In this document: positions 2,275 through 36,211 of the stretch, one piece after another
How the letters are laid out: every line of letters begins with the position of its first letter
Position numbering within the stretch: position 1 is the stretch's first letter
Assembly (NCBI GenBank): GCA_000004985.1
Contig: GG738847.1
DNA length: 64,000 nt
Source of the DNA: Naegleria gruberi
Lineage: Eukaryota
Strand: one strand, 5' to 3'
Program-made: the position numbers and the translations under genes
The notes under the pieces: model-generated
Databases searched by the model: none
Told to the model about the DNA's origin: nothing
Seen by the model: the letters and a program-made list of their open reading frames with translations, nothing else

Positions 2275-3800
2275 GCAAGTTTAACTTTCTCTAAAACAGT
2301 GGCACCTTCGAGACATGATTGTTCACTCAAAGCAATTAATTGTAAACCAATCTTTGATTTGGAACCCTCCTTATTTGGATCATTAATTTCAATAGGCACA
2401 GATATTGCTGGCACACCTGCTAAACTGCTTGGAACGGTAAAGATATCATTAACAAACATTTCCACAGGTGACATCTTTGTAAATAAATCTCTATCAATAG
2501 CTGGGGTAGGTGTGCAAGGCGTTAATAAATAATCAATTCCTTGATCTTGTAAAACTTGATAAAAATCGTTAGCAATTAATCTTCTGGTTTGTTGGGCCTT
2601 CTTGAAGAAGGTATCATACTTATCTACTGAAAGGGCAAAATTACCAGAAACAATTCTTCTCAAAACTTCATTTCCAAAACCTTCGCTTCTATTTTGTAAA
2701 TAATATGCAAGTAAATCTTGATTCTTTGAGACCTTATTACCATATCTCAAACCATCATATCTAGATAAATTGGAAGAAGCCTCAGCTGTTGCAATAACAT
2801 AATAAGTAGAGAGAGCTTCTTTTGAGTGTGGTAAGGAAACATATTCAACTTGAGCTCCAGTTTGATCTTGTATCCATTTAATAGTTTCTTCCCAAACTTT
2901 AACAATATTATCATTCAATTCATCAACGAAATATTCAACAGGAATACCAATCTTGACATTCTTGAGTATTCCCTTATTATATTCATTATCAATTGAATCC
3001 AATTTAGATAAATCCACAGGTGAAACATTGAGTTTTGTAGTTGGATCATTTTGATCATTTCCACTAAGAGTATTAAAAACAATTGCACTTTCCCTGACAG
3101 TCTTTGAGAAAATTCCACAAGTATCAAGAGAAGATCCATAAGAAATCATACCATATCTACTGCATGAACCATAGGATGGTTTAAACCCAACAACTCCACA
3201 ATATGATGCAGGTAAACGAACACTACCACCTGTATCAGTACCTAAAGAGCTATATAATTATATACTAATTAATAAATGAATTTAACATTAAATCACATAC
3301 AAGAAACAACTTTCCTCAGCAACACAAGCAGCACTACCTCCTGAACTTCCTCCAGCAATTTTCTTTTCATCGAGTGGATTTCTAGTTTCTCCAAAAGCTC
3401 CAAAAATTGTACCACTTCCCATAGCAAACTCATCCATATTTGTTTTTCCAATCATGACAGCACCTACATCTTCCAATCGTTTTACTACAGTAGCTGTGTA
3501 TGGTGGAATGTAATCCTTAAGAATATTACTAGCCATTGTTGTTTGAATTCCTTGCGTACAGAAAGCATCCTTCACAGCAAAAGGAACACCTTTAAGTGGA
3601 TGTTCTGGTTTTTCATGTGATTCATCCAACTTTTTCTTGGCATACTCTGGACATGTTCTAATGTAGGCATTAAATTTATTTTCCGAAGCCTTGTTCAAAC
3701 AATAATTCAAAACTCCTTCTCCGTTTTTAAAAGATGATGAAGCCTTTGCTTTAGAAAAACAGAGGGAAAGCAATTTGGATGCTTCTTGTGGTGATGGCAT
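2271..3800 (-). CDS. Glu-tRNA(Gln) amidotransferase subunit A-like amidase (amidase signature family), 2 exons
   Basis: Two minus-strand ORFs joined by a 51-nt intron (plus coords 3250..3300, donor GTATGT, acceptor TATATAG). The spliced frame reads ...[45 protein letters not shown]. GatA hallmarks present: [55 protein letters not shown] = complement(join(2271..3249,3301..3800)), 1479 nt. Confidence 0.75.
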
Positions 3801-3865
3801 TTTTTTTAAATTACTTAAGTAAACATTTTTTATTAATTATTTAAATTATTTAATATTTAGGAATA

Positions 3866-6424
3866 TTAATTAGCAATGGAAGGTGTGGAGCTAGTATTTG
3901 AACGGTAAGTTGATTTAAAATTTGGAATTGAAAGAAATCTTCTCTTGATCCAATCTGTGAGTTGATCGTAATTTTCAAATTGATTTTTCATTCCACACTG
4001 GGTCATTACTTGATTCCATTCCTCAATGGAGAGCAAATCAATTAATTTGGTGAGAGAATCAATTGCAGATAGCCTCCATTCAGTTCTATATTGATCCCTA
4101 ATTGTGGCATTGTATTTGGAACGAATAGTTTTAAGAACGAGATGCATGGTATTGATTCGTTCCTGGATTGACATTTCACAATTTTCAAATTGGTACTTGA
4201 CATATAATTTAACATGAGAGATGTTTCCACTTTCCAATAGAGAAATGATTACTCTCAAATAATAGTATCTTCTGAGAGAATTATTTCTGGAATAGGCACC
4301 AGAAACAAATTCTAGCAAATCATCAATTTGTCTCAATCTTGGTTTGATAGCATAATTTTGAATTAATATTCTCAAATCTAATCGACATGTATCAGATGCT
4401 ATGAGTTTGGATTGTTTGTTTTGTAAAAAGTGTGGAATGCTGGAATCAGAAGAAGAAAGAAAAGATTCTTCATCCATTGACCTAGTTCCATACCTTAAAT
4501 GCCTAGCTGTAGATTGTGGCATGTACCAATCGGCCTTGCTTGTCTTACTCTTCGATTGTTCTTCATTGAGTTTTCCCATAACACTGTAACTTGTCAGTAT
4601 GTATTTGTCAAATGATCTCTCCATTTGTATAACCAGATATTCAAAAATCATGGTTTGGGTTGAAATATTCTTCTCTTTAGTAGTGTCAAATAGAGGATTT
4701 TCATGTAAATTCTTCTTCCAATCAATTAGAGAAGATTGATTATTCTTCTCAAATGCTTTGATAGACTCAAGAAGTGGAATATTAGTTGCTTTGAAAGTGG
4801 TTGGTATATTATCAGTTCCAATATTAACTGTATGATCTATTGTCATCATGGTGTTCCATATAAAATCGTGATAAATTTTCCATACAATATTGAGGAATGG
4901 TATATCAAATACGAGTGGCTCTCGAATGATTCTGTCACATATTTTAATAGCATCTTCATACTTGGCATTATTAGCCAAGTAGGTAAGAATGATGGTGAGA
5001 GTAGAGACATTAATTTGTACACCATTTTCCTCAAATTTAGTCAAAGTTTTTAGTGCATCTGCTTCTTTGCCATGTTTTAACTGTAAATTCAAAAATATAT
5101 TTAAAATTCTAGTACTACATTTGATATTTAACTTGTTAAGGAATATGTCAAACAGAGTCGATACTTGTTCATAGGTCATTAAACTAGATGCCTTTGACTC
5201 GGATCTGAATAGGTCTCTAATATTTATAGGTGAAATAATATGAACATAATTACTCTTATTAGTTATGTTTTCTTGAATAATATCAATTAGTATCCTCAAA
5301 TGGTCTGGCTTATTAGATTCCGACAGATAATAAATTAATAAATTAAAACACCTTTGGGATGGTCTCTTAATGAGCTTGTATACCTCATAAACTTGATCAT
5401 AGTATTTACACTCCCCAAATATTGTCAATAATTTGTGTGCAATCTCATAAACATGCGAATTGCTAAAGAAATGTGACTCAGTATGATCATTTGCCAAACA
5501 AGTAATAAATGGAAGAATTAATCTATCACTTTCTTGCTTTACCAAAAGATAGGCCGTTTCATATTTTCTTCCTTCAATTAAAAGTTCCAAAATAATATCC
5601 AGTGAATAAATATCCATAATATAATAATCACTATTAGACATTCCAACAACAAATGATAAACATTGTTGCATGGATGAATCATTGGTAAAATCATCCTGTC
5701 TGAAAATATCCAACAAGAGTTGAAGGGAAGGAGCAGAAGGTGAAGAATTTCCTTCATTATTATTAACAGCTTCAAACAGTCTTTTTCCATATTCTTCCTT
5801 CATTGAATTAATAGATAATCTCACAAGAAATGATATTCCTTTTTGAGTGATTGGATCACAAATATTTTTCTTATTCCATGAATTATCCTTTGTGTAATCT
5901 TTCAGAAATATTAAAATCTTTTGAATTTTTAAATATTCTTTGGTTTGATCAAAATGGCAAAGAAGAGTATCACAAATCTTGGCAATTGACAATACTGTAT
6001 ATTTTTCCGAGTTTTCATCATGTTCTTCATATATGAAATCAAATAGATCCTTCCCTTTTTCTAATAAAAACAATGCTTTGTGATAGTTTCCTCGATCCAA
6101 TTGTTCAAAAATTGGATTAAAATTATTAGCAATTTGTGTTAATTTTTTTAAATTAATTGCCATATCATTTGATAAATTAGTATTAGATGAAATTATTTTC
6201 AATGATTTCCTAGATGTTGAATGATTAAATTTCTTTGATGTTGAAATAATAACCTCCTCATGTAGTTTAATTCTGTTTCTTTTCTTTTTTTCTTCCACAT
6301 TTTGTGTAAATGATGATTCCTCATGATATGTAAATCCGCTTCCGAAGGAGGAACTATATTTTCTATATCCTGTTGGGGTCACAGAAAATGTCTTGTGTAG
6401 AAAAGGAAGAAGCTGTTTTTTCAT
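3866..6424 (-). CDS. large alpha-helical repeat protein, possibly a mitochondrial PPR/TPR-like RNA-metabolism factor
   Basis: 852-aa ORF. Basic, acid-poor N-terminus (MKKQLLPFLHKTFSVTPTGYRKYSSS). Body made of degenerate ~35-aa helical repeats (e.g. ILNIFLNLQLKHGKEADALKTLTKFEENGVQINVSTLTIILTYLANNAKYEDAIKICDRII). The product assignment is inference only. Confidence 0.4.
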   Translation of the reverse strand: MKKQLLPFLHKTFSVTPTGYRKYSSSFGSGFTYHEESSFTQNVEEKKKRNRIKLHEEVIISTSKKFNHSTSRKSLKIISSNTNLSNDMAINLKKLTQIANNFNPIFEQLDRGNYHKALFLLEKGKDLFDFIYEEHDENSEKYTVLSIAKICDTLLCHFDQTKEYLKIQKILIFLKDYTKDNSWNKKNICDPITQKGISFLVRLSINSMKEEYGKRLFEAVNNNEGNSSPSAPSLQLLLDIFRQDDFTNDSSMQQCLSFVVGMSNSDYYIMDIYSLDIILELLIEGRKYETAYLLVKQESDRLILPFITCLANDHTESHFFSNSHVYEIAHKLLTIFGECKYYDQVYEVYKLIKRPSQRCFNLLIYYLSESNKPDHLRILIDIIQENITNKSNYVHIISPINIRDLFRSESKASSLMTYEQVSTLFDIFLNKLNIKCSTRILNIFLNLQLKHGKEADALKTLTKFEENGVQINVSTLTIILTYLANNAKYEDAIKICDRIIREPLVFDIPFLNIVWKIYHDFIWNTMMTIDHTVNIGTDNIPTTFKATNIPLLESIKAFEKNNQSSLIDWKKNLHENPLFDTTKEKNISTQTMIFEYLVIQMERSFDKYILTSYSVMGKLNEEQSKSKTSKADWYMPQSTARHLRYGTRSMDEESFLSSSDSSIPHFLQNKQSKLIASDTCRLDLRILIQNYAIKPRLRQIDDLLEFVSGAYSRNNSLRRYYYLRVIISLLESGNISHVKLYVKYQFENCEMSIQERINTMHLVLKTIRSKYNATIRDQYRTEWRLSAIDSLTKLIDLLSIEEWNQVMTQCGMKNQFENYDQLTDWIKRRFLSIPNFKSTYRSNTSSTPSIAN

Positions 6425-6579
6425 TTTTTTAGAATGCTATTCTTTCAAGAAATTTCTTTGTTGCATTTAATGAGTTTCTTTTATTGAACAAAATTTCTAC
6501 AAGATATTCTGATCACAAAATAACTCGACCTAGGTTTTCTACAGTTCACAGCAAACATTTAGCCGTTTCATTGATTTAT

Positions 6580-7806
6580 CTAATCAACACGACCATAAAC
6601 TCTTCCATAAGCTTTCCTTAAATCTTGGTATCTTTGTTTTAGTTCCTGTTCCTTACTTCTTGAAACTACATTAGTTCTTTCAACTGGTGCTTCCTTTTTA
6701 GGTGGTGCACTCCTTTGAGGTGGATAATCTGACTCGGAATCACTCTCCTCTTTCTTATAGGAATCTACCACTGATCGTTTTGAAGAGTGGTTCTTTTGAG
6801 ATGATTTTGGTTTTTCTTCCAACATTTCATTCTCTGATTCTGTTGATAAAAATTCAGTAGAGTGGGTTTCCTTCCTGAAAACTGGAGAATTGATGGCAGT
6901 TCTCTTTGAAAGAACTACTAATTGAGGTTGCTCTCCCTCTGTATCAGAGGACGACGCGGATGACATTACAATTCTATCCCTCGATCTTTCCCTCGAGTCT
7001 GGTTCTTCCTCAGGTTCTGGCTTCTGTGAAGCAAGATCTTTGAACTTTTTCTGGAGGTATGCAGTCTTCCTTCTGTATCTTTCTTGAATGTCTCTAAGCT
7101 CGGTTAATCTCTCCTCGAATATCTTCAGTTTTGTTTCATGAAGTGTAAAAAGCTCCTCTATTGACTTTTTTTGAGAACTAACATTTTCTTCAATGTTGTC
7201 CACTCTGTGTCTTAATGAACTGTACTTTTTGGCCTGGGTTGTTACTTGTAAATCCATTTCCTTCATCATTTCTTCAACAGAAACAATTTTCTTTTCTATA
7301 GCATGGTTTTTGCTCTTTTGCTGGTCGTACAATAATTGATACTTGTTGAAGAGTGTCTCGTACTTTTTCAATTGTTCTTGATATTGACTTGTTGTTGAAG
7401 AGGACCTCATTGGAATACTCTCGGCATTGTTGTTACTATTACTGGAAGCTGTTTTTGAAACATTATGGGATGACGAAGAAGGTCTGGGTATTGTTACAGT
7501 GTTTGTCCTAGATGGTGTTTGTTGAGAATTACTGCTCAATGATTTACGAACGGGAGAGCTTGATTTTGATCTTTTAGGTTTCTTCTTTGTCGTATTTCTA
7601 GATGATGATTTGTTGTTTTCATTTCTTTGAGCCATTGTCTGATTGTACCTAGCACTGGATGAAAAAGTTGGTTGTGTGAGTCTTGATTGCTGTTGTTGCT
7701 GTTGTTGTTTGGTCGATGATGAGTGAGTGGTTGTCGATGGAACTGCTGCATTCAGTAAGGGAGATGAGTATGCCTTACCGCCCATCAACACACTCTTTGT
7801 TTTCAT
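6580..7806 (-). CDS. hypothetical Ser-rich coiled-coil protein
   Basis: 408-aa ORF. poly-Q (QQQQQQQQ). Long S/T/N-rich N-terminal half. Heptad-like central region (EELFTLHETKLKIFEERLTELRDIQERYRRKTAYLQKKFKDL). Acidic S-rich C-terminus. Confidence 0.5.
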   Translation of the reverse strand: MKTKSVLMGGKAYSSPLLNAAVPSTTTHSSSTKQQQQQQQSRLTQPTFSSSARYNQTMAQRNENNKSSSRNTTKKKPKRSKSSSPVRKSLSSNSQQTPSRTNTVTIPRPSSSSHNVSKTASSNSNNNAESIPMRSSSTTSQYQEQLKKYETLFNKYQLLYDQQKSKNHAIEKKIVSVEEMMKEMDLQVTTQAKKYSSLRHRVDNIEENVSSQKKSIEELFTLHETKLKIFEERLTELRDIQERYRRKTAYLQKKFKDLASQKPEPEEEPDSRERSRDRIVMSSASSSDTEGEQPQLVVLSKRTAINSPVFRKETHSTEFLSTESENEMLEEKPKSSQKNHSSKRSVVDSYKKEESDSESDYPPQRSAPPKKEAPVERTNVVSRSKEQELKQRYQDLRKAYGRVYGRVD

Positions 7807-27464: not shown

Positions 27465-28826
27465 TTAATTAATTGTTGATGAGCTAATATCGCAAACCAA
27501 TCTATGAGTTTGAGATGATGGAATTGAAAAGAAAGTAACACTCAATGGCAGTTCAGTATATGAATTTCCTTGCTTTTTTGGAGAATTTAAAATTGCCACT
27601 TTTGGAGAATAATCTGTTTCAATAAATGGTAATCCAAATATTTCTAATTCGATTTTGGAGGATAATTTGAATACTGGTAACCCTGATTCAATGTGATATA
27701 ATGAATCATGAGTCATTATAAAGCTTAATCGAACACCTTCCATCTCTCTAGATTGTATTTGAGAAAATTCTAATGGTCTTGGAGTAGAGATTGTAAACTG
27801 TGCAAGACTTTGTCTGTTGAATCTGGGCATTTGAGGAGTGAATGTAATTGCATCCGAATTATTGTTGTTATATGATAACTGATGATATGTTTGTCTAATA
27901 GAATTTACACTATATTTTACACATAGGAGTTGCAGATGTTCAGCTCGAGCACAATCATTGTCTGTGAATGGAACATGATTTGTTTCAATTTGTTGTTTGA
28001 TTTGATGTAAATAGGTCACAAAGGACTTGGTATCCATTGATTTATCTGTTTGTTCCTCGTTAGTGTATTTCCGTTTAACACCTGTAGTATATGGTAGTTT
28101 TACACATTCTTTCTTGAAATATTGAAATTTGAGTGATGAATATTTCATAATATACTCCATTACTGTTGTTCTTTTCGAATACACTCGTTGTTCACCAAAA
28201 AATCCTTCTAAAGATCTTGTGCCAAACACTTGAAGTTGTGGCTGGGTATTTGGTGGTATTAAGGGAATTAATTTTGAAATTGTTTCCAAGTTATGCTTAA
28301 TCGTTGCCTTGGAAAACGTTCCAAAAATAGTAAAATTATTATTCTTGTTGGTGCTATTTACATCACTAAAGATATCATCCCACCAATCAAGAAACTCTAA
28401 TGATTGAGAAAGAATTAATAACTTGAGTGAGAGAATTTTTTGATTTCTTTGTGACTTTGTGAATGTCATCGTACGTGAAAAATCATGAATAAGTTTCAAG
28501 TAAGAATATAGACCCAAATATTTGTTGTTAGTTTGTTGATTCAATTTTGCCAATTCATTAATTAACAAGGGAGAACACACTTGCCGCAATACATCTTCAG
28601 ATTGATCATCATAATTAATAAAAGCAGACCTTCTAATAATTTTGCACCAATATGATGGATTTGTTTGGTAAATTTCATCTAATGTCTTCAGCTCAAATTT
28701 TTGTAAGAGTGATTCTTCAATTGAAATGAAAAACACATTCTCAATACTTCTATTGTTAATTGTTAAATTTGGAATACTTGTTTGGTTGGGGTTGGAGCAG
28801 AGAAAAGTTAATGATAAATTATGCAA
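27465..28826 (-). CDS. hypothetical protein, probably the 3' portion of the gene at 28940..29722
   Basis: 453-aa ORF. Its reading frame is open upstream to plus 29039 with no ATG, and it overlaps the end of the upstream ORF in a different frame. Confidence 0.4.
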   Translation of the reverse strand: MHNLSLTFLCSNPNQTSIPNLTINNRSIENVFFISIEESLLQKFELKTLDEIYQTNPSYWCKIIRRSAFINYDDQSEDVLRQVCSPLLINELAKLNQQTNNKYLGLYSYLKLIHDFSRTMTFTKSQRNQKILSLKLLILSQSLEFLDWWDDIFSDVNSTNKNNNFTIFGTFSKATIKHNLETISKLIPLIPPNTQPQLQVFGTRSLEGFFGEQRVYSKRTTVMEYIMKYSSLKFQYFKKECVKLPYTTGVKRKYTNEEQTDKSMDTKSFVTYLHQIKQQIETNHVPFTDNDCARAEHLQLLCVKYSVNSIRQTYHQLSYNNNNSDAITFTPQMPRFNRQSLAQFTISTPRPLEFSQIQSREMEGVRLSFIMTHDSLYHIESGLPVFKLSSKIELEIFGLPFIETDYSPKVAILNSPKKQGNSYTELPLSVTFFSIPSSQTHRLVCDISSSTIN

Positions 28827-28939: not shown

Positions 28940-29722
28940 TTATAGCATCACTATATTTGTGAAATGAAAGTTTAAGTAGATGACTGTCCTCCAGTTGTTG
29001 ATGATAATGGAAGAGTGGAACGACCTGGTATTTCTTCCATTATATATCTCCTTTGATACTGATGGAAAGAGTTTTGGCTTTGTTTCAATAGCATTCCTCA
29101 AATTTTTACATAAATGAGAATAGCAAAAATGGTGAGGATATTCTGATGTTTGCCAATTAGCACCTCCTGCATCAGAAACAGTGCATGTTATTTGATTAGT
29201 ATACACATCCTTGAATTTTGTAATAACATGTTGAAGATCTTCACTTGTTTCAGACTTGCAAAACTTGAAATTGCCTGGAATTCTCAATTTTCCTTCAATA
29301 TAGAGTGTTTGGATAACCTTTTCGGCCAGAAAATTATTTTGAATAATATTATCATTAATTGTATGTGATTGTGTTATTGGAATAGGACCTTGAATAGCTC
29401 CAATTAATAATCCAGATTTACGATTAATACTTAAACTAGAGAAAAGATCCATTCCATCCACTTGCAAAATACCTAATGTAGTATTATCTATTCCAATGAT
29501 TTCACGTAGATGTGAGAAATCAGCTGCATCTAAAGAAGTATCACCATAGCCAACATTTGGGTGATGAAAATGATTATCAAGCGTAGAAGAACATGGAAGT
29601 ATTAAATTACAATAGTATGCAGATGTGTCAAATTTTTCTGAATTTCCAGTCATATATCCTCTTCCGATAGCTTCATAAAGATTATAACCCATAGCTGCTA
29701 GCAAATCTTGACCATGATACAC
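28940..29722 (-). CDS. hypothetical protein, probably the 5' portion of one gene continuing into 27465..28826
   Basis: 260-aa ORF. The last ~30 aa (WRTVIYLNFHFTNIVML) look non-protein-like, while the alternative frame over the same bases continues cleanly into the downstream ORF. Confidence 0.4.
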   Translation of the reverse strand: MYHGQDLLAAMGYNLYEAIGRGYMTGNSEKFDTSAYYCNLILPCSSTLDNHFHHPNVGYGDTSLDAADFSHLREIIGIDNTTLGILQVDGMDLFSSLSINRKSGLLIGAIQGPIPITQSHTINDNIIQNNFLAEKVIQTLYIEGKLRIPGNFKFCKSETSEDLQHVITKFKDVYTNQITCTVSDAGGANWQTSEYPHHFCYSHLCKNLRNAIETKPKLFPSVSKEIYNGRNTRSFHSSIIINNWRTVIYLNFHFTNIVML

Positions 29723-30118
29723 AAAATTATGAATATTGGGTCATGTTCAACAAGTACATGTTGTTGCACTACTCTGAAGGTCAAAGTTCTTGACAATAAT
29801 AATCTAGATTATGTTAATTATCCATGTGGTTGGTATACATGCCTGGGCGAAACCAGGAAATATTGGATTCATCCACAAGGTATTCCTTTGGAAGGGTCGG
29901 AAAGTACTTTTTATTTGACCAGCACAATGAATTATTGGAACGTGTTGAAATGAATGACAATACGTACATTATTTTCAAGTATTTGCACTTGTTTTTTCCA
30001 AACTACATTCAATACGACCAACGTTATCATCATCAAATCATGCAATCACCAAATCACAACACCATCACAATCATCACAACGGTGCCATCAAATAGCTTAA
30101 AAAAAAATCATCAAAAAT

Positions 30119-32248
30119 ATGAAACATACCTTCCTTCGTAAAATCAATAGATTGCAGTTATTTACTGCATCACCCAAAATCAACAGATCAATATTAAAAA
30201 TTAATAATTTAACTAATGATATTAACAAGTTTACAATTAATAGAGTGAATCAAACTAAAAACTATTCAAATACATTAAAACCAACAACAAATAATGTTGA
30301 AAATATTAAATTTAAAAATATTGGTGACCGAAATTTGTTGGTGCCATATTTTCCATATGGTGAATCAGATTTTGCTTCCATCAGAAGAAGTAAACAATTT
30401 TATGTTGATAAAACTAATTTAATTCCTCTATTAGAAGAAAGTGGAAAACAATTATTTTTTGTTCGTCCTCCGAGATGGGGAAAATCACTATTATTATCAA
30501 TGCTTTCATCATATTATGATGTTAACAAGAAAGATGAATTTGATGAATTATTTTCTGGTTTATGGATTGGTGATGAAAATAATTGGACACCTGGAAAGAA
30601 TCAATATTATGTTTTAAAGTTAGATTTTTCTATTCAAGTTGATGGTACTGCTGATGATATTAATCAACGACTTCACACAAAAATCAATACAACCATTGAA
30701 GGATTTTTGGAATGTTATGGTATGGGTGGTGAGGTTAGCATTAATCAAAATGATTCATTTGATACTTATCAAAAACTTATCCAACTTTTAGTCAAGAGAA
30801 AAGGCAAATTAATGGTATTAATTGATGAATATGATAGATTTGCAAACAAATTAATGTTTGAAAATCCTGAAAAATATCAATTAATAGTTGAAGGAAAGAG
30901 AGGAGATCCAACATCTTCACCAATTCGTTCTTTCTTTGAAAGATTGAAAGAGTCTTCCGCTACTGGTTTACAAGATTTTCGTAGTATCATCACTGGTATC
31001 ACTCCTATTGCTCTTGCTGATGCATCTGGATATAATGTTTCCAGTAATATTTCCTCTGATAAGATATTTGGTGGTTTGGTTGGTTTTACAGAAAATGATT
31101 TGAGAATGGCATTAAATAACATTGATATTATTGGAAATGATCAAGATATTACCATTTCAACCATGAAAAAGTATTATAAAGGTTATCATTTTCCTGGTTC
31201 AAAACATGCTCTATTCAACACAACTCTTTCAATGTTCTTTTTGAACAAACTTGTAAAAGATGAACCTTTCAGAAATGCTGTTCTACAAAAACAAGAAATT
31301 CCATTATCAATATTAACAGATACCAACACAATGATCAGTGAGAACGTTTTTGCAACTTTGGCATCATCAGTTGTATCGAATGATATTATTCAACAATTAC
31401 TTTCAAAAGATTATGTAGAAGTAACAGAGTCAATTTATCCTTCACTGAAATTAAGAGAGATTATTGATCCACCATCCAATGAAGAAGATATACAAAAGAT
31501 TCGTGATAATGCTTTATCATTCATGTATTATCATGGTATGATTACTTTCACAGAATCATCCTCAAAACAAATGAATCCAAAACAATTGTTAATTCCAAAT
31601 GAAATTGCAAAGGTTCAATATTTGGAACAGTTACGTAGACTTATATCTTTACGTGAAAGTGATATATCAACTTTTATTAATGAACCAACTCAAGATAATT
31701 TGAAAAAATTACTTTGGAGTATTTTAAGCAAGCAAGAAACAGTGTTTGACAATGATATGTCTGAAGGAGGTTTACAATCTTGTATTGAATCTGCATTGAG
31801 ATCATATTCTTTATATAGAAGCAAAGATTTTACTCTTAGAGCAGAAAAGGAATATACAAATTATCATATCAATGGAAAAGAATATACTGAATTAAGAGCT
31901 GACCTTGTTATTTCAACCGACAATGACATATTTATCATTGAATTGAAACATTTGAGACCAATGTATTTATCACAATATTCTACTATTAGAATTTGGAAAC
32001 CTTATATGTTTAAGGAAAAATTTAAAGAATTATTACAAGCTGATGAAAGCCAGTTATTGAATATGCTAGTTTTTCAAAAATGGGCAAACAAATATGTTAA
32101 AGTTGAAAGTATCTTAAATGAGGCAAGTTCTAAGGTTAAACAATATGCCAAAAAAGAACAAGAATTACTTGGCAATAATGATAAAACTATCCACAAGTTC
32201 GTTGTCATTCAAGTTGGTTGGCCTCTTATTGTGAGGAAAGTAAATTAA
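30119..32248 (+). CDS. bacterial-type AAA-ATPase-like (PF09820-like) plus PD-(D/E)xK nuclease-fold (PF08011/PDDEXK_9-like) protein with eukaryotic N-terminal extension
   Basis: 709-aa intronless ORF. After a ~75-aa basic N/K-rich extension, the sequence LLVPYFPYGESDFASIRRSKQFYVDKTNLIPLLEESGKQLFFVRPPRWGKSLLLSMLSSYYD matches the N-terminal signature of the predicted AAA-ATPase family (P.G..DF..I.....YYVDKT..I..L......F..RPRRFGKSL..S.L..Y). The C-terminus carries a PD-(D/E)xK core: ELRADLVISTDNDIFIIELKH...VIQVGW. Confidence 0.8.
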   Translation: MKHTFLRKINRLQLFTASPKINRSILKINNLTNDINKFTINRVNQTKNYSNTLKPTTNNVENIKFKNIGDRNLLVPYFPYGESDFASIRRSKQFYVDKTNLIPLLEESGKQLFFVRPPRWGKSLLLSMLSSYYDVNKKDEFDELFSGLWIGDENNWTPGKNQYYVLKLDFSIQVDGTADDINQRLHTKINTTIEGFLECYGMGGEVSINQNDSFDTYQKLIQLLVKRKGKLMVLIDEYDRFANKLMFENPEKYQLIVEGKRGDPTSSPIRSFFERLKESSATGLQDFRSIITGITPIALADASGYNVSSNISSDKIFGGLVGFTENDLRMALNNIDIIGNDQDITISTMKKYYKGYHFPGSKHALFNTTLSMFFLNKLVKDEPFRNAVLQKQEIPLSILTDTNTMISENVFATLASSVVSNDIIQQLLSKDYVEVTESIYPSLKLREIIDPPSNEEDIQKIRDNALSFMYYHGMITFTESSSKQMNPKQLLIPNEIAKVQYLEQLRRLISLRESDISTFINEPTQDNLKKLLWSILSKQETVFDNDMSEGGLQSCIESALRSYSLYRSKDFTLRAEKEYTNYHINGKEYTELRADLVISTDNDIFIIELKHLRPMYLSQYSTIRIWKPYMFKEKFKELLQADESQLLNMLVFQKWANKYVKVESILNEASSKVKQYAKKEQELLGNNDKTIHKFVVIQVGWPLIVRKVN

Positions 32249-32353
32249 ACATTTCATAAAATAAAATGTTAAGAATGGAACTGGGTTTGATGAGAAGTTT
32301 TTTGTTGATCATTTGTAAAATATTAAAAGGAATACATCAAACGTGCTGATCTT

Positions 32354-32686
32354 GTGATAAGAACTTCTAAAAAAGTATTAATAATTGAATTCAAACGTAT
32401 TAGACCAAATTCTTTAACAAAATATTCCAATATTGAATATTGGAATCCGCAAATTTTTAAAAATATATTTAAAGATTTATCTAAACAAACTGATGAAGAA
32501 TTATTAGAAATGGAAGTACTTACTCATGCCAAAGAGAAAGTTGTAGCCAGATCAATTTTGAATTCTGCAATTTCTCAAGTCAAACAATATGCTCAATATG
32601 AAAATGATGCTGACAAATCAAAAAGCATTCATAAGTATGCAGTGATACAAGTTGGTTGGCCCTTAATTGTAAGAAAATTGAATTAA
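32354..32686 (+). pseudogene. tandem partial duplicate of the PD-(D/E)xK C-terminal module of the upstream gene (gene fragment)
   Basis: 110-aa ORF. VLIIEFKRIRPNSLTKYSNIEYWNPQIFKNIFKDL...SQVKQYAQYEND..KSIHKYAVIQVGWPLIVRKLN aligns collinearly with DIFIIELKHLRPMYLSQYSTIRIWKPYMFKEKFKEL...SKVKQYAKKEQ..KTIHKFVVIQVGWPLIVRKVN at the end of 30119..32248. It lacks the ATPase-like N-terminal two thirds. Confidence 0.6.
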
Positions 32687-33317
32687 AATGTTTGCTGCAA
32701 CTAAAAGAACTTTCTACAGTTGCTCTCTTTATCACTAAATAAAAAGTTGAATGATGTATAGACAACTTTCGTGTAAAAACTTGTTCTCCAGACATGCTCA
32801 TCTCCTAAATGAAAAGATAAAAATCTTTGAACAAAGTGCGCCAGGTTTCGAGATGAAAAAGTTGTCAATATTTCACTATTCTGTTATCTCTAATGATGGC
32901 AGGTTTTGGGATAACAATTTCAAGGATTAGGAAATTGAGTGTTTGCATAGAATCACAATACATCAACAAGCAATACATGAACCAACGCTTAATATTATAA
33001 GGTAATATAGAATGATGTTCACGTATACAAGTCAAACACATCCCTCAGCAACTGTCAAATGTCATGCTTTGGGACTCGCAATATTAATGTGTAGTTTTTG
33101 GCGAGGATCATCTCTTGATGGAATAACAAATAAGAGATTATCTCAAGATAAAATATATTATTTGGATTCTCAAATCTAAGTGTCTGTATTTATTTTTTAT
33201 TTTATATTGAATGTTGGTAAAATCTCCCGAAAACCCAAGTATTGACATCCATTGACTGCTTAGTTTTCAGCCAAAACTTGCTTTGGTTTCAAGCCGATAA
33301 AATCCCACTAAAAGTAC

Positions 33318-34108
33318 TAGGGCAAAATAATTTAATTCCGATCACATTCAAATTCCGATCATTGGTGTAGAAATAAATTGTTGATTTATTTGAAATGTCA
33401 TTGGGAAGTCATGGCTCTTTCTCTCCACAATCAATACATAAGATGTTGGTAATCTCTTTTCCATTGATTGTTTCTGTTGATGGCATTGTACATGTTTTGG
33501 AATGGCATAATTTTTTACAAGTAGAGCATGTCATTATCGTCTTTAAATTTACATCCATAGTAGCAGCATATATTTTGTGATGATGATGCACTTGGAGAGG
33601 AGGTTGGATTTCTATCCATAGTATATCCACTAACAATATTATGATGGGTTAGAATTTTCATATGCTTCATGTAATATCTTTGTAAAGTCTTTTTTGGATT
33701 ATTTTCACTCCTTTAATTCATCCTCTTCCTCTTTAGTAAAGTAGGTCTTTCTACCAGCATGTGAATTAATTGATGATCTTCCATTTACTAGATCATTAAA
33801 AGTTGTATATGGAATGTCGAATTTTTTGGCTACGCTTCTGATGGAGGCACCATTTGTGGTATTTTAATATTCTAATGCTTTATCTCTCTTCTCCTCCTCC
33901 TCCTGTTGCTGTTGTTCATGTTCCTGCTTTTTTGTTAATTTCTTCTTAATCATGATGATGAAGGTGATCGGAATTATATTTTTTTCATATTAAAAATGGT
34001 TGTAAACTTTGGTAATTTTGTTGTACATAAAAACTTTGAAAGTTTACTATTAAAATTGTTCAAGATGATCGAAAATCGAGGTGATCGGAATTGAAATATT
34101 TTGCCCTA
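33318..34108. mobile_element. non-autonomous TIR DNA transposon relic (pogo/Tc5-like), about 790 bp, with 28-bp terminal inverted repeats and TA flanks
   Basis: Left end TAGGGCAAAATAATTTAATTCCGATCAC (33318..33345). Right end GTGATCGGAATTGAAATATTTTGCCCTA (34081..34108), whose reverse complement is TAGGGCAAAATATTTCAATTCCGATCAC: 26/28 matches with one indel. Read as TA|GGGCAAAAT...ATTTTGCCC|TA, this gives TA target-site duplications. Subterminal direct repeats GTGATCGGAATT / TTCCGATCA occur twice at each end. Confidence 0.6.
33696..33944 (-). pseudogene. relic of pogo/Tc5-family transposase N-terminus (HTH_psq type), interrupted by an in-frame TAA
   Basis: Minus-strand translation: MIKKKLTKKQEHEQQQQEEEEKRDKALEY*NTTNGASIRSVAKKFDIPYTTFNDLVNGRSSINSHAGRKTYFTKEEEDELKE*. 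This matches the psq/CENP-B-type HTH pattern (..AlEa..nG.SIRkAAK.fgIP.sTL.drl.Gr....GR...LT.EEE..L). It lies inside the TIR element. Confidence 0.55.
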
Positions 34109-34739
34109 ATGATACATTTTAAATTGTGCAATTTGGAATTTGCTTTGGGTATAGTGTTGAACACATTTTCAAGTTGACTATTGTAAAGTTTAAATGTTTC
34201 GTCTACAGTTTAATTAACGTTGAAAAGAGTTCGTGTGAGTACTTCTGTAAGGCTTGCGTAATGTAAAAAGGGAGATGTTGGAACGAGGTATCAAGTTCCT
34301 TTGAATTAAACTGAACTAAACGAAACATTACAATAATACTATTAAACAATATGTTGAACAACTACAGTTATTGATTGTTTCAAAAAGTGATCACTCAAAA
34401 TTGACTGGTACTATACTGTTAGAGATCATTCTCCAGAATGGCAATACCTCATTGTTTGTGGTGGCAGTTGACATGAGAACCTCGCATTCCCTTCGCCAAT
34501 CATTAGAAAAAAAACACACACATCCCAACGAGCTAGCACACATAAATAGACGCTGCAACTAGTTCACTGACCATCCATCATCAGAATCGCAGCAAATATA
34601 TTCCACATCATCATTTCGTACATAAAATTAAAGTACTTGCCTCGATATAAAGTATTTCTTCATCTCACAACAATTTATACCTTCGAGAGGAATAACATCA
34701 ACAACAACAAACTGACATATTATCATATTATATATTGAC

Positions 34740-35438
34740 ATGATTTTTAAGAGACTTTTTGCATCACCGATTGTATCAGCATCTGCGGAGGATGATATAA
34801 GTACACTTTCATCATCAACTCATCGACTCAATCGAAAGGTACTGAAAATAATGATATTAGGAGATGGTGAAAGTGGAAAAACAAGTATTGCTAAACAACA
34901 AATAGAAACATCAGGATTTACATTTAAACAGCCAAAGAGTGACCAAGAAGTATTGGAAGGTCAAAATTGTTTTGTTATTGTGGATGGAAAGGATGTGACT
35001 GTTAAATTATTGGATTCACCACCAGGAAATGATATTGGTTTAACCATTGAATGTGTTAAAGATTGTGATGGATTTATATTGGTGGTTGATTTGAGTCGTC
35101 CAAAAACGCTACAAGTTTTGAATCGATACAAGGCACTAATGTTAGAAAATTTATCCATGTCAACAATTCCTTGTGTGATTGCTGCTAATAAGTGTGATTT
35201 GGAAAGACAATTATCCATGTCACAGGTTAATGCATTTGCCAAGAACTTTTTCATTGATAGAAGTATTGCTAGTTTTGAATGTAGTGCATTGTCTGGTAGT
35301 GGTATCAATGACATGTTTTCATTCCTTTATAATCTTATCAAGACTTCTCAGAAGGAAGATAAACCAATCATCAAGGCAAAACAAAAACGTGGACTTCTTT
35401 CCTCTTCCTCAGAATCAAATGCTGATGAATGGTTTTAA
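34740..35438 (+). CDS. atypical Ras-superfamily small GTPase, possibly RABL5/IFT22-like
   Basis: 232 aa. G1 ILGDGESGKTS. Degenerate G3 (LDSPPG in place of DxxGQ). G4 ANKCD. G5 CSAL. The degenerate-G3 pattern recalls IFT22/RABL5. Family assignment is tentative. Confidence 0.5.
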   Translation: MIFKRLFASPIVSASAEDDISTLSSSTHRLNRKVLKIMILGDGESGKTSIAKQQIETSGFTFKQPKSDQEVLEGQNCFVIVDGKDVTVKLLDSPPGNDIGLTIECVKDCDGFILVVDLSRPKTLQVLNRYKALMLENLSMSTIPCVIAANKCDLERQLSMSQVNAFAKNFFIDRSIASFECSALSGSGINDMFSFLYNLIKTSQKEDKPIIKAKQKRGLLSSSSESNADEWF

Positions 35439-35537: not shown

Positions 35538-36211
35538 TTATAAGTTATTGGAAACAACCAATAATCCTGAAAATTTGTCATTAAAATAATCCTTCTTCTT
35601 GTATGAAAGCATCAATTCTTTGAAATCTATAAAGTTTGTAAATGAAAGAAGCATTTCGAAAACATCTCCTGACATATCACCTTCCTCAAAATCTTCCCAA
35701 TCATCGTCATTGCTATCATCTTCAATATCGTTATTCTTCTGTCTGTCCTTCTCTACCTTTTCCAGCACTTTTAAAAAACGATCCATTTCAAAATTATCAA
35801 TCTTTTCTGATAAAGATTGCTCCAGGTATTTTTCGATCATACCTTGATACTCGGTAAATATTGATGTGTATACAAGCTTGTTTTCTTCTCCTTCATCGAA
35901 TTGATTACAGTACTTTTCAGCAAAAGAATCTATCATTTTGGAAAATTGATTCTCTATATTATTAAGAAATAATCAAGCGATATGTTGGATTGGTTGTTAT
36001 TGTATGAACCAAAGAGGATATTTCATCATCATACAAAATATTGTTCGGCATTTTCTTCAGTAAAAAGAATCTCAAAATACCTACCCATCAACGTTTCCTC
36101 GAGAGCCCCTATTATTGAATCAAAATATGCTTGTTCTTCATCTTGTGGTGATGAGGCTAAAAATTCGTCGTCTTCTTGGACGCTTTGGTCGTATTCCTTA
36201 GATTTTGTCAT
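35538..36211 (-). CDS. ADP-ribosylation factor-like 2-binding protein (ARL2BP/BART) homolog, 2 exons
   Basis: complement(join(35538..35953,36085..36211)), 543 nt, 180 aa. The 131-nt intron has donor GTAGGT and acceptor ATATAG. Spliced sequence ...AYFDSIIGALEETLMENQFSKMIDSFAEKYCNQFDEGEENKLVYTSIFTEYQGMIEKYLEQ...VFEMLLSFTNFIDFKELMLSY aligns without gaps to the ARL2BP core YLEDIIMDDEFQLLQRNFMDKYYLEFEDTEENKLIYTPIFNEY...IFDMLLTFTDFLAFKEMFLDY. Confidence 0.8.

Follow-up and report, generated by a model that had tools for sequence, protein, structure and literature searches.

A probable orphaned 3′ end of a DUF1703 family gene downstream of a full-length member in Naegleria gruberi

What is the short reading frame that directly follows a full-length ATPase–nuclease gene in Naegleria gruberi and repeats the end of that gene? 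We analyzed this question in a window of 64,000 nucleotides, i.e., the whole stretch of DNA under study (GenBank assembly GCA_000004985.1, contig GG738847.1). An initial annotation of the window had interpreted the frame either as a local segmental duplication in decay or as a stand-alone nuclease-fold fragment. Our comparisons favor another reading, to which we assign a probability of about 0.7: the segment at 32327-32686 represents the orphaned 3′ end of a different, “B-type” member of a small mosaic DUF1703 family, left behind by recombination or repair between paralogues and likely a silent relic. The C-terminal module of the full-length gene itself is designated “A-type” below. The main object of comparison was L001, a 7.5-kb metagenome contig (ENA ERZ929261) with an intact 704-aa relative (P0001). 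The locus consists of the following features:

30059-30118, plus strand: 5′ flank in common with the paralogous gene unit of L001 (blastn, and MAFFT against L001 3118-3178)
30119-32248, plus strand: full gene, 709 aa
31534-32326, plus strand: A-type tract, i.e., codons 473-709, the stop codon and the 78-bp 3′ flank, delimited by divergence from L001
32249-32326, plus strand: spacer, the 78-bp 3′ flank of the A-type end (frame translation, local alignments)
32326/32327, no strand: junction J1, where the A-type 3′ flank is joined non-homologously to the equivalent of codon 587 of a B-type gene (comparison with L001)
32327-32686, plus strand: orphan B-type 3′ end, 119 codons and TAA in the frame of the gene (tblastn, identity with L001)
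32354-32686, plus strand: the initially annotated 110-aa frame with a GTG start, nested in the orphan segment (ORF listing)
32687-32713, plus strand: 27-bp B-type 3′ flank, identical to L001 5294-5320 (blastn)
32714-32719, no strand: 6-bp filler CTACAG at inversion junction J2 (direct reading)
32720-32973, minus strand: 255-bp inversion relative to L001 5319-5574, 98.8% identical (blastn)
32974-33242, plus strand: rest of the 3′ flank, collinear with L001, 98.5% identical (blastn, 32969-33242 against L001 5570-5840)

The full-length gene and the segment behind it

The full gene matched exactly the 709-aa protein NAEGRDRAFT_62270 (EFC49512.1) of N. gruberi NEG-M. Of nine other ORFs compared with known proteins, four matched NEG-M proteins of a 941,567-bp scaffold exactly, and two more fell into a 90% cluster together with NEG-M proteins. 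Its N-terminal part contained the PF09820 domain (AAA-ATPase_like, aa 79-301) with an E-value of 1.1e-41 and 143 bits against a cutoff of 26.1. The C-terminus was a PD-(D/E)XK-like domain with the motif residues D595, E608 and K610. The Pfam search for PF08011 gave no match in this protein, where only a weak NERD match appeared, and 16.7 bits (E 0.0071, under the 25.5-bit cutoff) for the segment 32327-32686; bacterial homologues retrieved with the same query had PF08011 and PF09820 together. The AF2 model of aa 455-709, with a pLDDT of 88.5, comprised the following elements:

aa 549-564: alpha1
aa 572-584: beta1
aa 587-599: beta2, with D595
aa 603-612: beta3, with E608 and K610
to aa 709: a helical insert, then two closing strands

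The predicted structure thus contains the alpha-beta-beta-beta-alpha-beta core of PD-(D/E)XK nucleases with D...E-x-K. The top PDB matches found by Foldseek were nearly all nucleases of this fold (SduA, CidB, AdnAB, MGME1, McrC, Hjc), the matches being weak (E-values of at least 1.5e-3). On domain architecture and modeled fold, NAEGRDRAFT_62270 is assigned to the DUF1703 family. The full 709-aa protein matched none of the PADLOC and NCBIfam models, and scans of 28-36 kb for Rfam families, tRNAs and tandem repeats revealed nothing relevant. Apart from the segment at 32327, tblastn with the 709-aa protein detected no second family copy in the 64-kb window.

The 110-aa frame exists as first described. 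BLASTP aligned the whole of it with residues 597-709 of the upstream protein (54/113 identical, 48%, E 2e-29). The similarity spanned the entire segment and was not confined to low-complexity residues, and the common terminus VIQVGWPLIVRK(V/L)N was confirmed. By tblastn, the homology ran from 32327 to about 32683 and corresponded to residues 587-709 (50% over 122 positions, E 4e-26). It set in 27 nt upstream of the GTG, directly 3′ of an in-frame TAA (32324-32326); it began 78 bp after the stop codon of the gene, the GTG lying 105 bp after it. In the nine additional codons, KEYIKRADL, the catalytic-type Asp of the RADLV sequence is encoded (nt 32348-32350). The E-x-K part of the nuclease core had been correctly located in the frame; the refinement is that the homologous segment is longer by these 27 nt and includes the Asp as well, so that D...E-x-K is found in the segment, while the GTG frame itself is devoid of D. 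The PF09820 ATPase domain was entirely missing from 32327-32686. As initially proposed, the segment repeats only the 3′ end of the gene and leaves out the ATPase region.

GTG is not plausible as a start codon in N. gruberi, a eukaryote, and the 110-aa frame is a product of the bacterial start-codon rule applied within the orphan segment. The first in-frame ATG of the segment is located at 32510, codon 62 of 119. Projected on the AF2 map of the upstream protein, the segment spans beta2 to the C-terminus, alpha1 and beta1 being absent. The alternative of a stand-alone PD-(D/E)XK nuclease is not supported: the core is incomplete, there is no early ATG, and the GTG frame lacks the Asp. Stop-codon read-through from the gene into the segment was rejected, since six in-frame stops intervene; beyond the TAA of the gene, the spacer 32249-32326 has five more stops in the gene frame, the last one at 32324-32326. 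The exact 110-aa product was absent from a collection of 15 billion proteins. The consecutive numbers EFC49512 and EFC49513 (a Ras GTPase) suggest an annotation without any plus-strand gene at the segment. By itself, the segment does not count as a member of the family, and the lesson for annotation is that a 110-aa “nuclease-fold ORF” of this kind should not be called a gene.

Two types of ending in a mosaic gene family

Two further proteins of strain NEG-M, NAEGRDRAFT_78045 (P0002) and NAEGRDRAFT_62226 (P0148), each of 705 aa, belong to the same 90% cluster as the protein of the window; both are reported on a contig of 941,567 bp, equal in size to that of NAEGRDRAFT_62270. A partial fourth member of the family exists in this strain. 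The orphan segment was identical to the C-termini of P0001 and P0002 (119/119 aa each) and differed from that of P0148 in 2 aa. At the nucleotide level, window positions 32327-32713 were identical to L001 4934-5320 (387/387 nt, blastn); the identity to the NEG-M paralogues is thus one of protein, and the nucleotide figure refers to a single metagenome contig from another strain or locus. By these sequences, the B-type is the usual ending of the family, all intact paralogues carrying it.

This result speaks against the initial proposal of a local duplication followed by decay. The segment matches the 3′ end of L001 in 387 of 387 nt and NAEGRDRAFT_78045 in 119 of 119 aa, and its reading frame has 0 stops and 0 frameshifts in 119 codons. 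A decaying pseudogene is not supported: no disabling change was found, there are 0 differences in 387 nt from an intact gene, and dN/dS against the neighboring end is 0.31. The undamaged sequence reflects either a recent event or ongoing gene conversion by paralogues.

It is the ending of the full-length gene that departs from the family. Window 30059-31533 was almost identical to L001 except for a microtract of 13 differences (window 30941-31018 against L001 3998-4075), two SNPs and two small indels; 31019-31533 was identical. Past 31533, the identity drops to 94-68% and then to 48-70%. The A-type tract (793 bp) that begins here occupies the place of 343 bp in L001 (4591-4933) and is the only part of the gene unit strongly different from the paralogues. 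Synonymous divergence between the window gene and L001 was 0-0.009 over codons 1-270 and 301-472 and about 0.47 over codons 473-586. Between the A-type and B-type copies of codons 587-709, dS reached 1.24, which is near saturation, with dN/dS of 0.31; the step in dS between codons 473-586 and 587-709 was significant (p = 0.002). Over 119 aligned codons, A and B were 52% identical in protein and 64% in DNA.

The comparison of synonymous and non-synonymous changes, suggested earlier as a check, thus reveals old divergence under purifying selection rather than duplication and decay, and the dN/dS value indicates that both A and B diverged as working coding sequences. The B-type segment shared 76% with the Willaertia magna homologue P0007, in line with 73% in the N-terminal region, and the A-type end shared 49% with it. 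The latter was about equidistant from the N. fowleri homologue (55%) and from B (52%). A and B are therefore two old lineages of the C-terminal module that are now adjacent. The divergence of about 50% between the neighboring copies gives no date for a local duplication, because it reflects two old versions of the domain.

No relative of the A tract closer than 46-57% was found in an exhaustive HMMER search of 1.84 billion representative proteins. Neither a peptide-pattern scan nor an exact A-type 24-mer scan of the JGI metagenomes gave a match, and no A-type donor was found in the databases searched. A foreign origin of the tract was rejected on composition: its GC content is 0.287, the same as in the remainder of the gene, and on this basis the tract looks native to Naegleria. 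The 78-bp A-type flank, aligned with the B-type flank, the 5′ flanks, the whole window and L001, scored below the 95th percentile of shuffled sequences.

Old private blocks were found in other members as well. Residues 178-237 of P0002, within the ATPase domain, form a private block of about 50% divergence, the remainder of the protein being identical. The microtract of 13 differences in L001 is another such divergent patch. The family is thus a gene-conversion mosaic, largely homogenized, with a few old blocks left. For Cardinium, DUF1703 paralogues have been reported to recombine with one another (PMC6387759).

Homologous loci of relatives were also inspected. On the Willaertia magna contig L004 (JBEGDK010000141.1), two full-length genes (2853-4868 and 5001-7046) form a head-to-tail tandem pair with a 132-bp spacer, and both have B-like C-termini. 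Five homologous genes of W. magna and N. lovaniensis were examined, and none of them was accompanied by an orphan fragment. No synteny of the window with the family loci of these two species was detected.

Junctions and rearrangements around the segment

At J1, complete identity with L001 begins exactly at 32327 (L001 4934), the sequences differing immediately 5′ of this position. The segment and its 27-bp flank are followed by the 6-bp filler and the inversion, which starts 33 bp past the stop codon of the segment; the right junction of the inversion, J3, shows GCAA microhomology. The repeat scan and the junction sequences revealed no long inverted repeats flanking the inversion, and site-specific inversion was rejected, as there are no inverted repeats at the breakpoints. 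The combination of filler and microhomology points to end-joining or template-switch repair. The small ORFs over the inversion junctions had no exact match in the 15-billion-protein collection.

The adjacent 530 bp of flank had 7 differences from L001, compared with 0/387 in the segment and its own flank (Fisher p = 0.023). Similarity to the L001 3′ flank stops at 33242. On the other side, it ends abruptly upstream of 30059, beyond which mismatches were at the random level (blastn, MAFFT). The outer flanks of L001 did not match the window, with the exception of two displaced pieces: window 29727-29871 (L001 2897-3035), which is inverted, and window 34107-34461 (L001 1144-1495), which lies on the opposite side of the gene, both about 94.6% identical. 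These pieces suggest that the surroundings of the gene unit were segmentally duplicated at an earlier time and have been rearranged since then, the unit itself having been homogenized more recently. Because of the differences in the flanks, the L001 locus is a paralogous or rearranged one and no simple allele of the window. The initial characterization of the locus as a rearranged one agrees with the 255-bp inversion, the displaced flanking pieces and a transposon remnant.

The latter, at 33318-34108, is a MITE-like or internally deleted pogo/Tc1-type transposon of about 790 bp. Its terminal inverted repeats of 28 nt are 93% complementary, and a TA is found at either side of the element; it contains a minus-strand remnant with an internal stop and a weak, sub-threshold HTH_psq match (E 0.0014). 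Directly upstream of the nuclease gene, two minus-strand ORFs of 453 aa (27465-28826) and 260 aa (28940-29722) were found. They had no Pfam match even at E 5, were absent from L001 and probably represent one interrupted gene. The upstream flank of the locus also includes a metallo-beta-lactamase gene. Farther downstream, the window encodes a Ras-family GTPase (34740-35438; the NEG-M annotation is a shorter, 195-aa model) and, on the strand opposite to it, an ARL2-binding BART-domain protein (35538-35936).

Origin of the segment

The orphaned B-type end would have arisen by recombination or double-strand-break repair between paralogues, in which homology settled one side and end-joining or template switching the other; the same event may have given rise to the inversion and its 6-bp filler. 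Two orders of events were considered. According to the first, which we hold at about even odds, the A-type end would be an old resident of the locus that escaped homogenization. The B fragment may then be all that a deletion of about 1.9 kb spared of a B-type tandem partner, for which the tandem pair of W. magna would serve as a precedent by analogy. It may also be an aborted conversion tract that entered from a B-type paralogue via the common 3′ flank and was unable to resolve in the A/B region of 64% identity. According to the second order, a less probable one though still a serious candidate, the locus was once an ordinary B-type one: a 793-bp A-type patch from an unseen donor would have taken the place of 343 bp and shifted the former ending in the 3′ direction, by an exchange that was homologous near 31534 and illegitimate at 32326. 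The first order needs no donor and at least two events; the second needs one event and a donor absent from the databases, and it is weakened by the failure to find an A-type donor. Under either of them, the segment most likely makes no protein and would be a silent relic. The intact 119-codon frame in the phase of the gene also fits some retained use.

Such retained use is an improbable alternative to a relic. The segment would act as an alternative or additional 3′ exon, as a small stand-alone protein or as a silent cassette for swapping the nuclease end, comparable with the orphan tips of bacterial Rhs/CdiA loci, for which recombination has been documented in the case of Rhs (PMC3967940). 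Apart from the intact frame in phase with the gene, this agrees with the presence of the C-terminal module of the family as two old types, with the lack of differences from L001 in 387 nt next to 7 in the following 530 nt, and with the positions of a GT (32240) and an AG (32328-32329) that would bound a 90-nt intron in frame. A mutually exclusive exon is contradicted by the lack of any GT in 31800-31906, which leaves no donor at the homologous point, and all homologues end at RK[VL][ND], the same place as the annotated stop of the gene. A separate protein would have a fold without alpha1 and beta1 and no early ATG, and its exact 110-aa version is missing from the large protein collection. Regarding a cassette, the longest exact match between A and B is 14 nt at 64% identity, a poor substrate for homologous switching; there is no accompanying immunity-like ORF, and none of the five homologous genes in W. 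magna and N. lovaniensis has an orphan fragment beside it.

Even less probable is an in-situ tandem duplication of the last ~120 codons of the gene with the downstream copy drifting as a decaying pseudogene. In its favor, the copies lie next to each other as direct repeats, 78 bp apart and in one frame, and other rearrangements occurred at the locus. The model is already largely refuted by four observations. Neither a stop nor a frameshift interrupts the 119 codons of the downstream copy, which match the ends of intact genes elsewhere exactly; the copies have diverged with a dN/dS of 0.31 and not ~1; the Willaertia orthologue is nearer to the downstream copy (76%) than to the in-gene copy (49%); and the single-copy codons 473-586 have diverged too, which a duplication of 587-709 alone leaves unexplained.

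An assembly artefact, i.e., a false partial duplication produced in the NEG-M scaffold by the joining of two diverged alleles or paralogues, is very improbable: near-identical paralogues, a classic cause of misassembly, are present in the family, three junctions lie within 650 bp and no independent contig with the junction was found, but a 3′ flank is linked to codon 587, a non-homologous position, an outcome that repeat collapse or haplotype switching would not normally give, an assembler would not confuse A and B at only 64% identity, and the junction is interior to a 941-kb scaffold with the annotated 709-aa ORF intact.

Of the ordinary categories among known systems, the orphaned B-type end comes closest to the truncated relics of paralogues in families that evolve in concert. 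Like concerted-evolution families with escape islands, this family combines long tracts of dS ~0 with private blocks of dS 0.5 to >1. Like truncated tandem gene relics, the segment is a 5′-truncated remnant without promoter and start codon, and a related genus has two full-length genes in tandem; unlike usual relics, it is undecayed and lies next to a complex cluster of junctions (filler and inversion).

The DUF1703 genes of Cardinium cCpun (PF09820 AAA-ATPase_like and PF08011 PDDEXK_9), which have expanded to 25 paralogues (PMC6387759), have in common with the Naegleria family the two-domain architecture, multiple diverged paralogues and intragenic recombination without full homogenization; occasional nuclease-only or ATPase-only genes are found among them. 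The Naegleria family differs in that it is a eukaryotic (heterolobosean) branch with a C-terminal domain below the PF08011 threshold and only 3-4 copies, and in that its partial copy, a remnant without the 5′ part, directly adjoins a full gene instead of forming a gene of its own.

The layout of the locus, a full gene followed by a 5′-truncated and strongly diverged alternative C-terminal module of the nuclease type, is also that of the Rhs/CdiA orphan tips (PMC3967940), where the displacement of an old ending by a new one would be expected to produce it. Unlike those loci, this one has no cognate immunity gene: the A-type end is followed by 78 bp filled with stops, and no conserved ORF follows the fragment. 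The fragment also lacks the conserved core, its homology starting inside the diverged region; the host is a eukaryote, there is no evidence of secretion or toxicity, and a single instance was found. By analogy, heterolobosean DUF1703 proteins might be eukaryotic polymorphic nucleases, with A and B modules kept over the long term and exchanged, and displaced endings kept as re-usable silent cassettes; we consider this a distant prospect. If strains did swap endings, this would suggest diversifying selection on the nuclease module and hint at a role in conflict or defence, neither of which is shown by the present evidence. The locus is a compact case of how a small bacterial-type gene family evolves in a eukaryote, with homogenization, private ancient blocks and a precise non-homologous scar side by side.

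A further change at the C-terminus was observed in an environmental Naegleria-like sequence (contig L003, ENA k141_563323, positions 1415-1751). Its protein, P0006, loses similarity to the family past the E-x-K strand and stops soon afterwards, with a second short ORF next to it; an intron or a frameshift could account for the loss, as could a further C-terminal module in truncated form.
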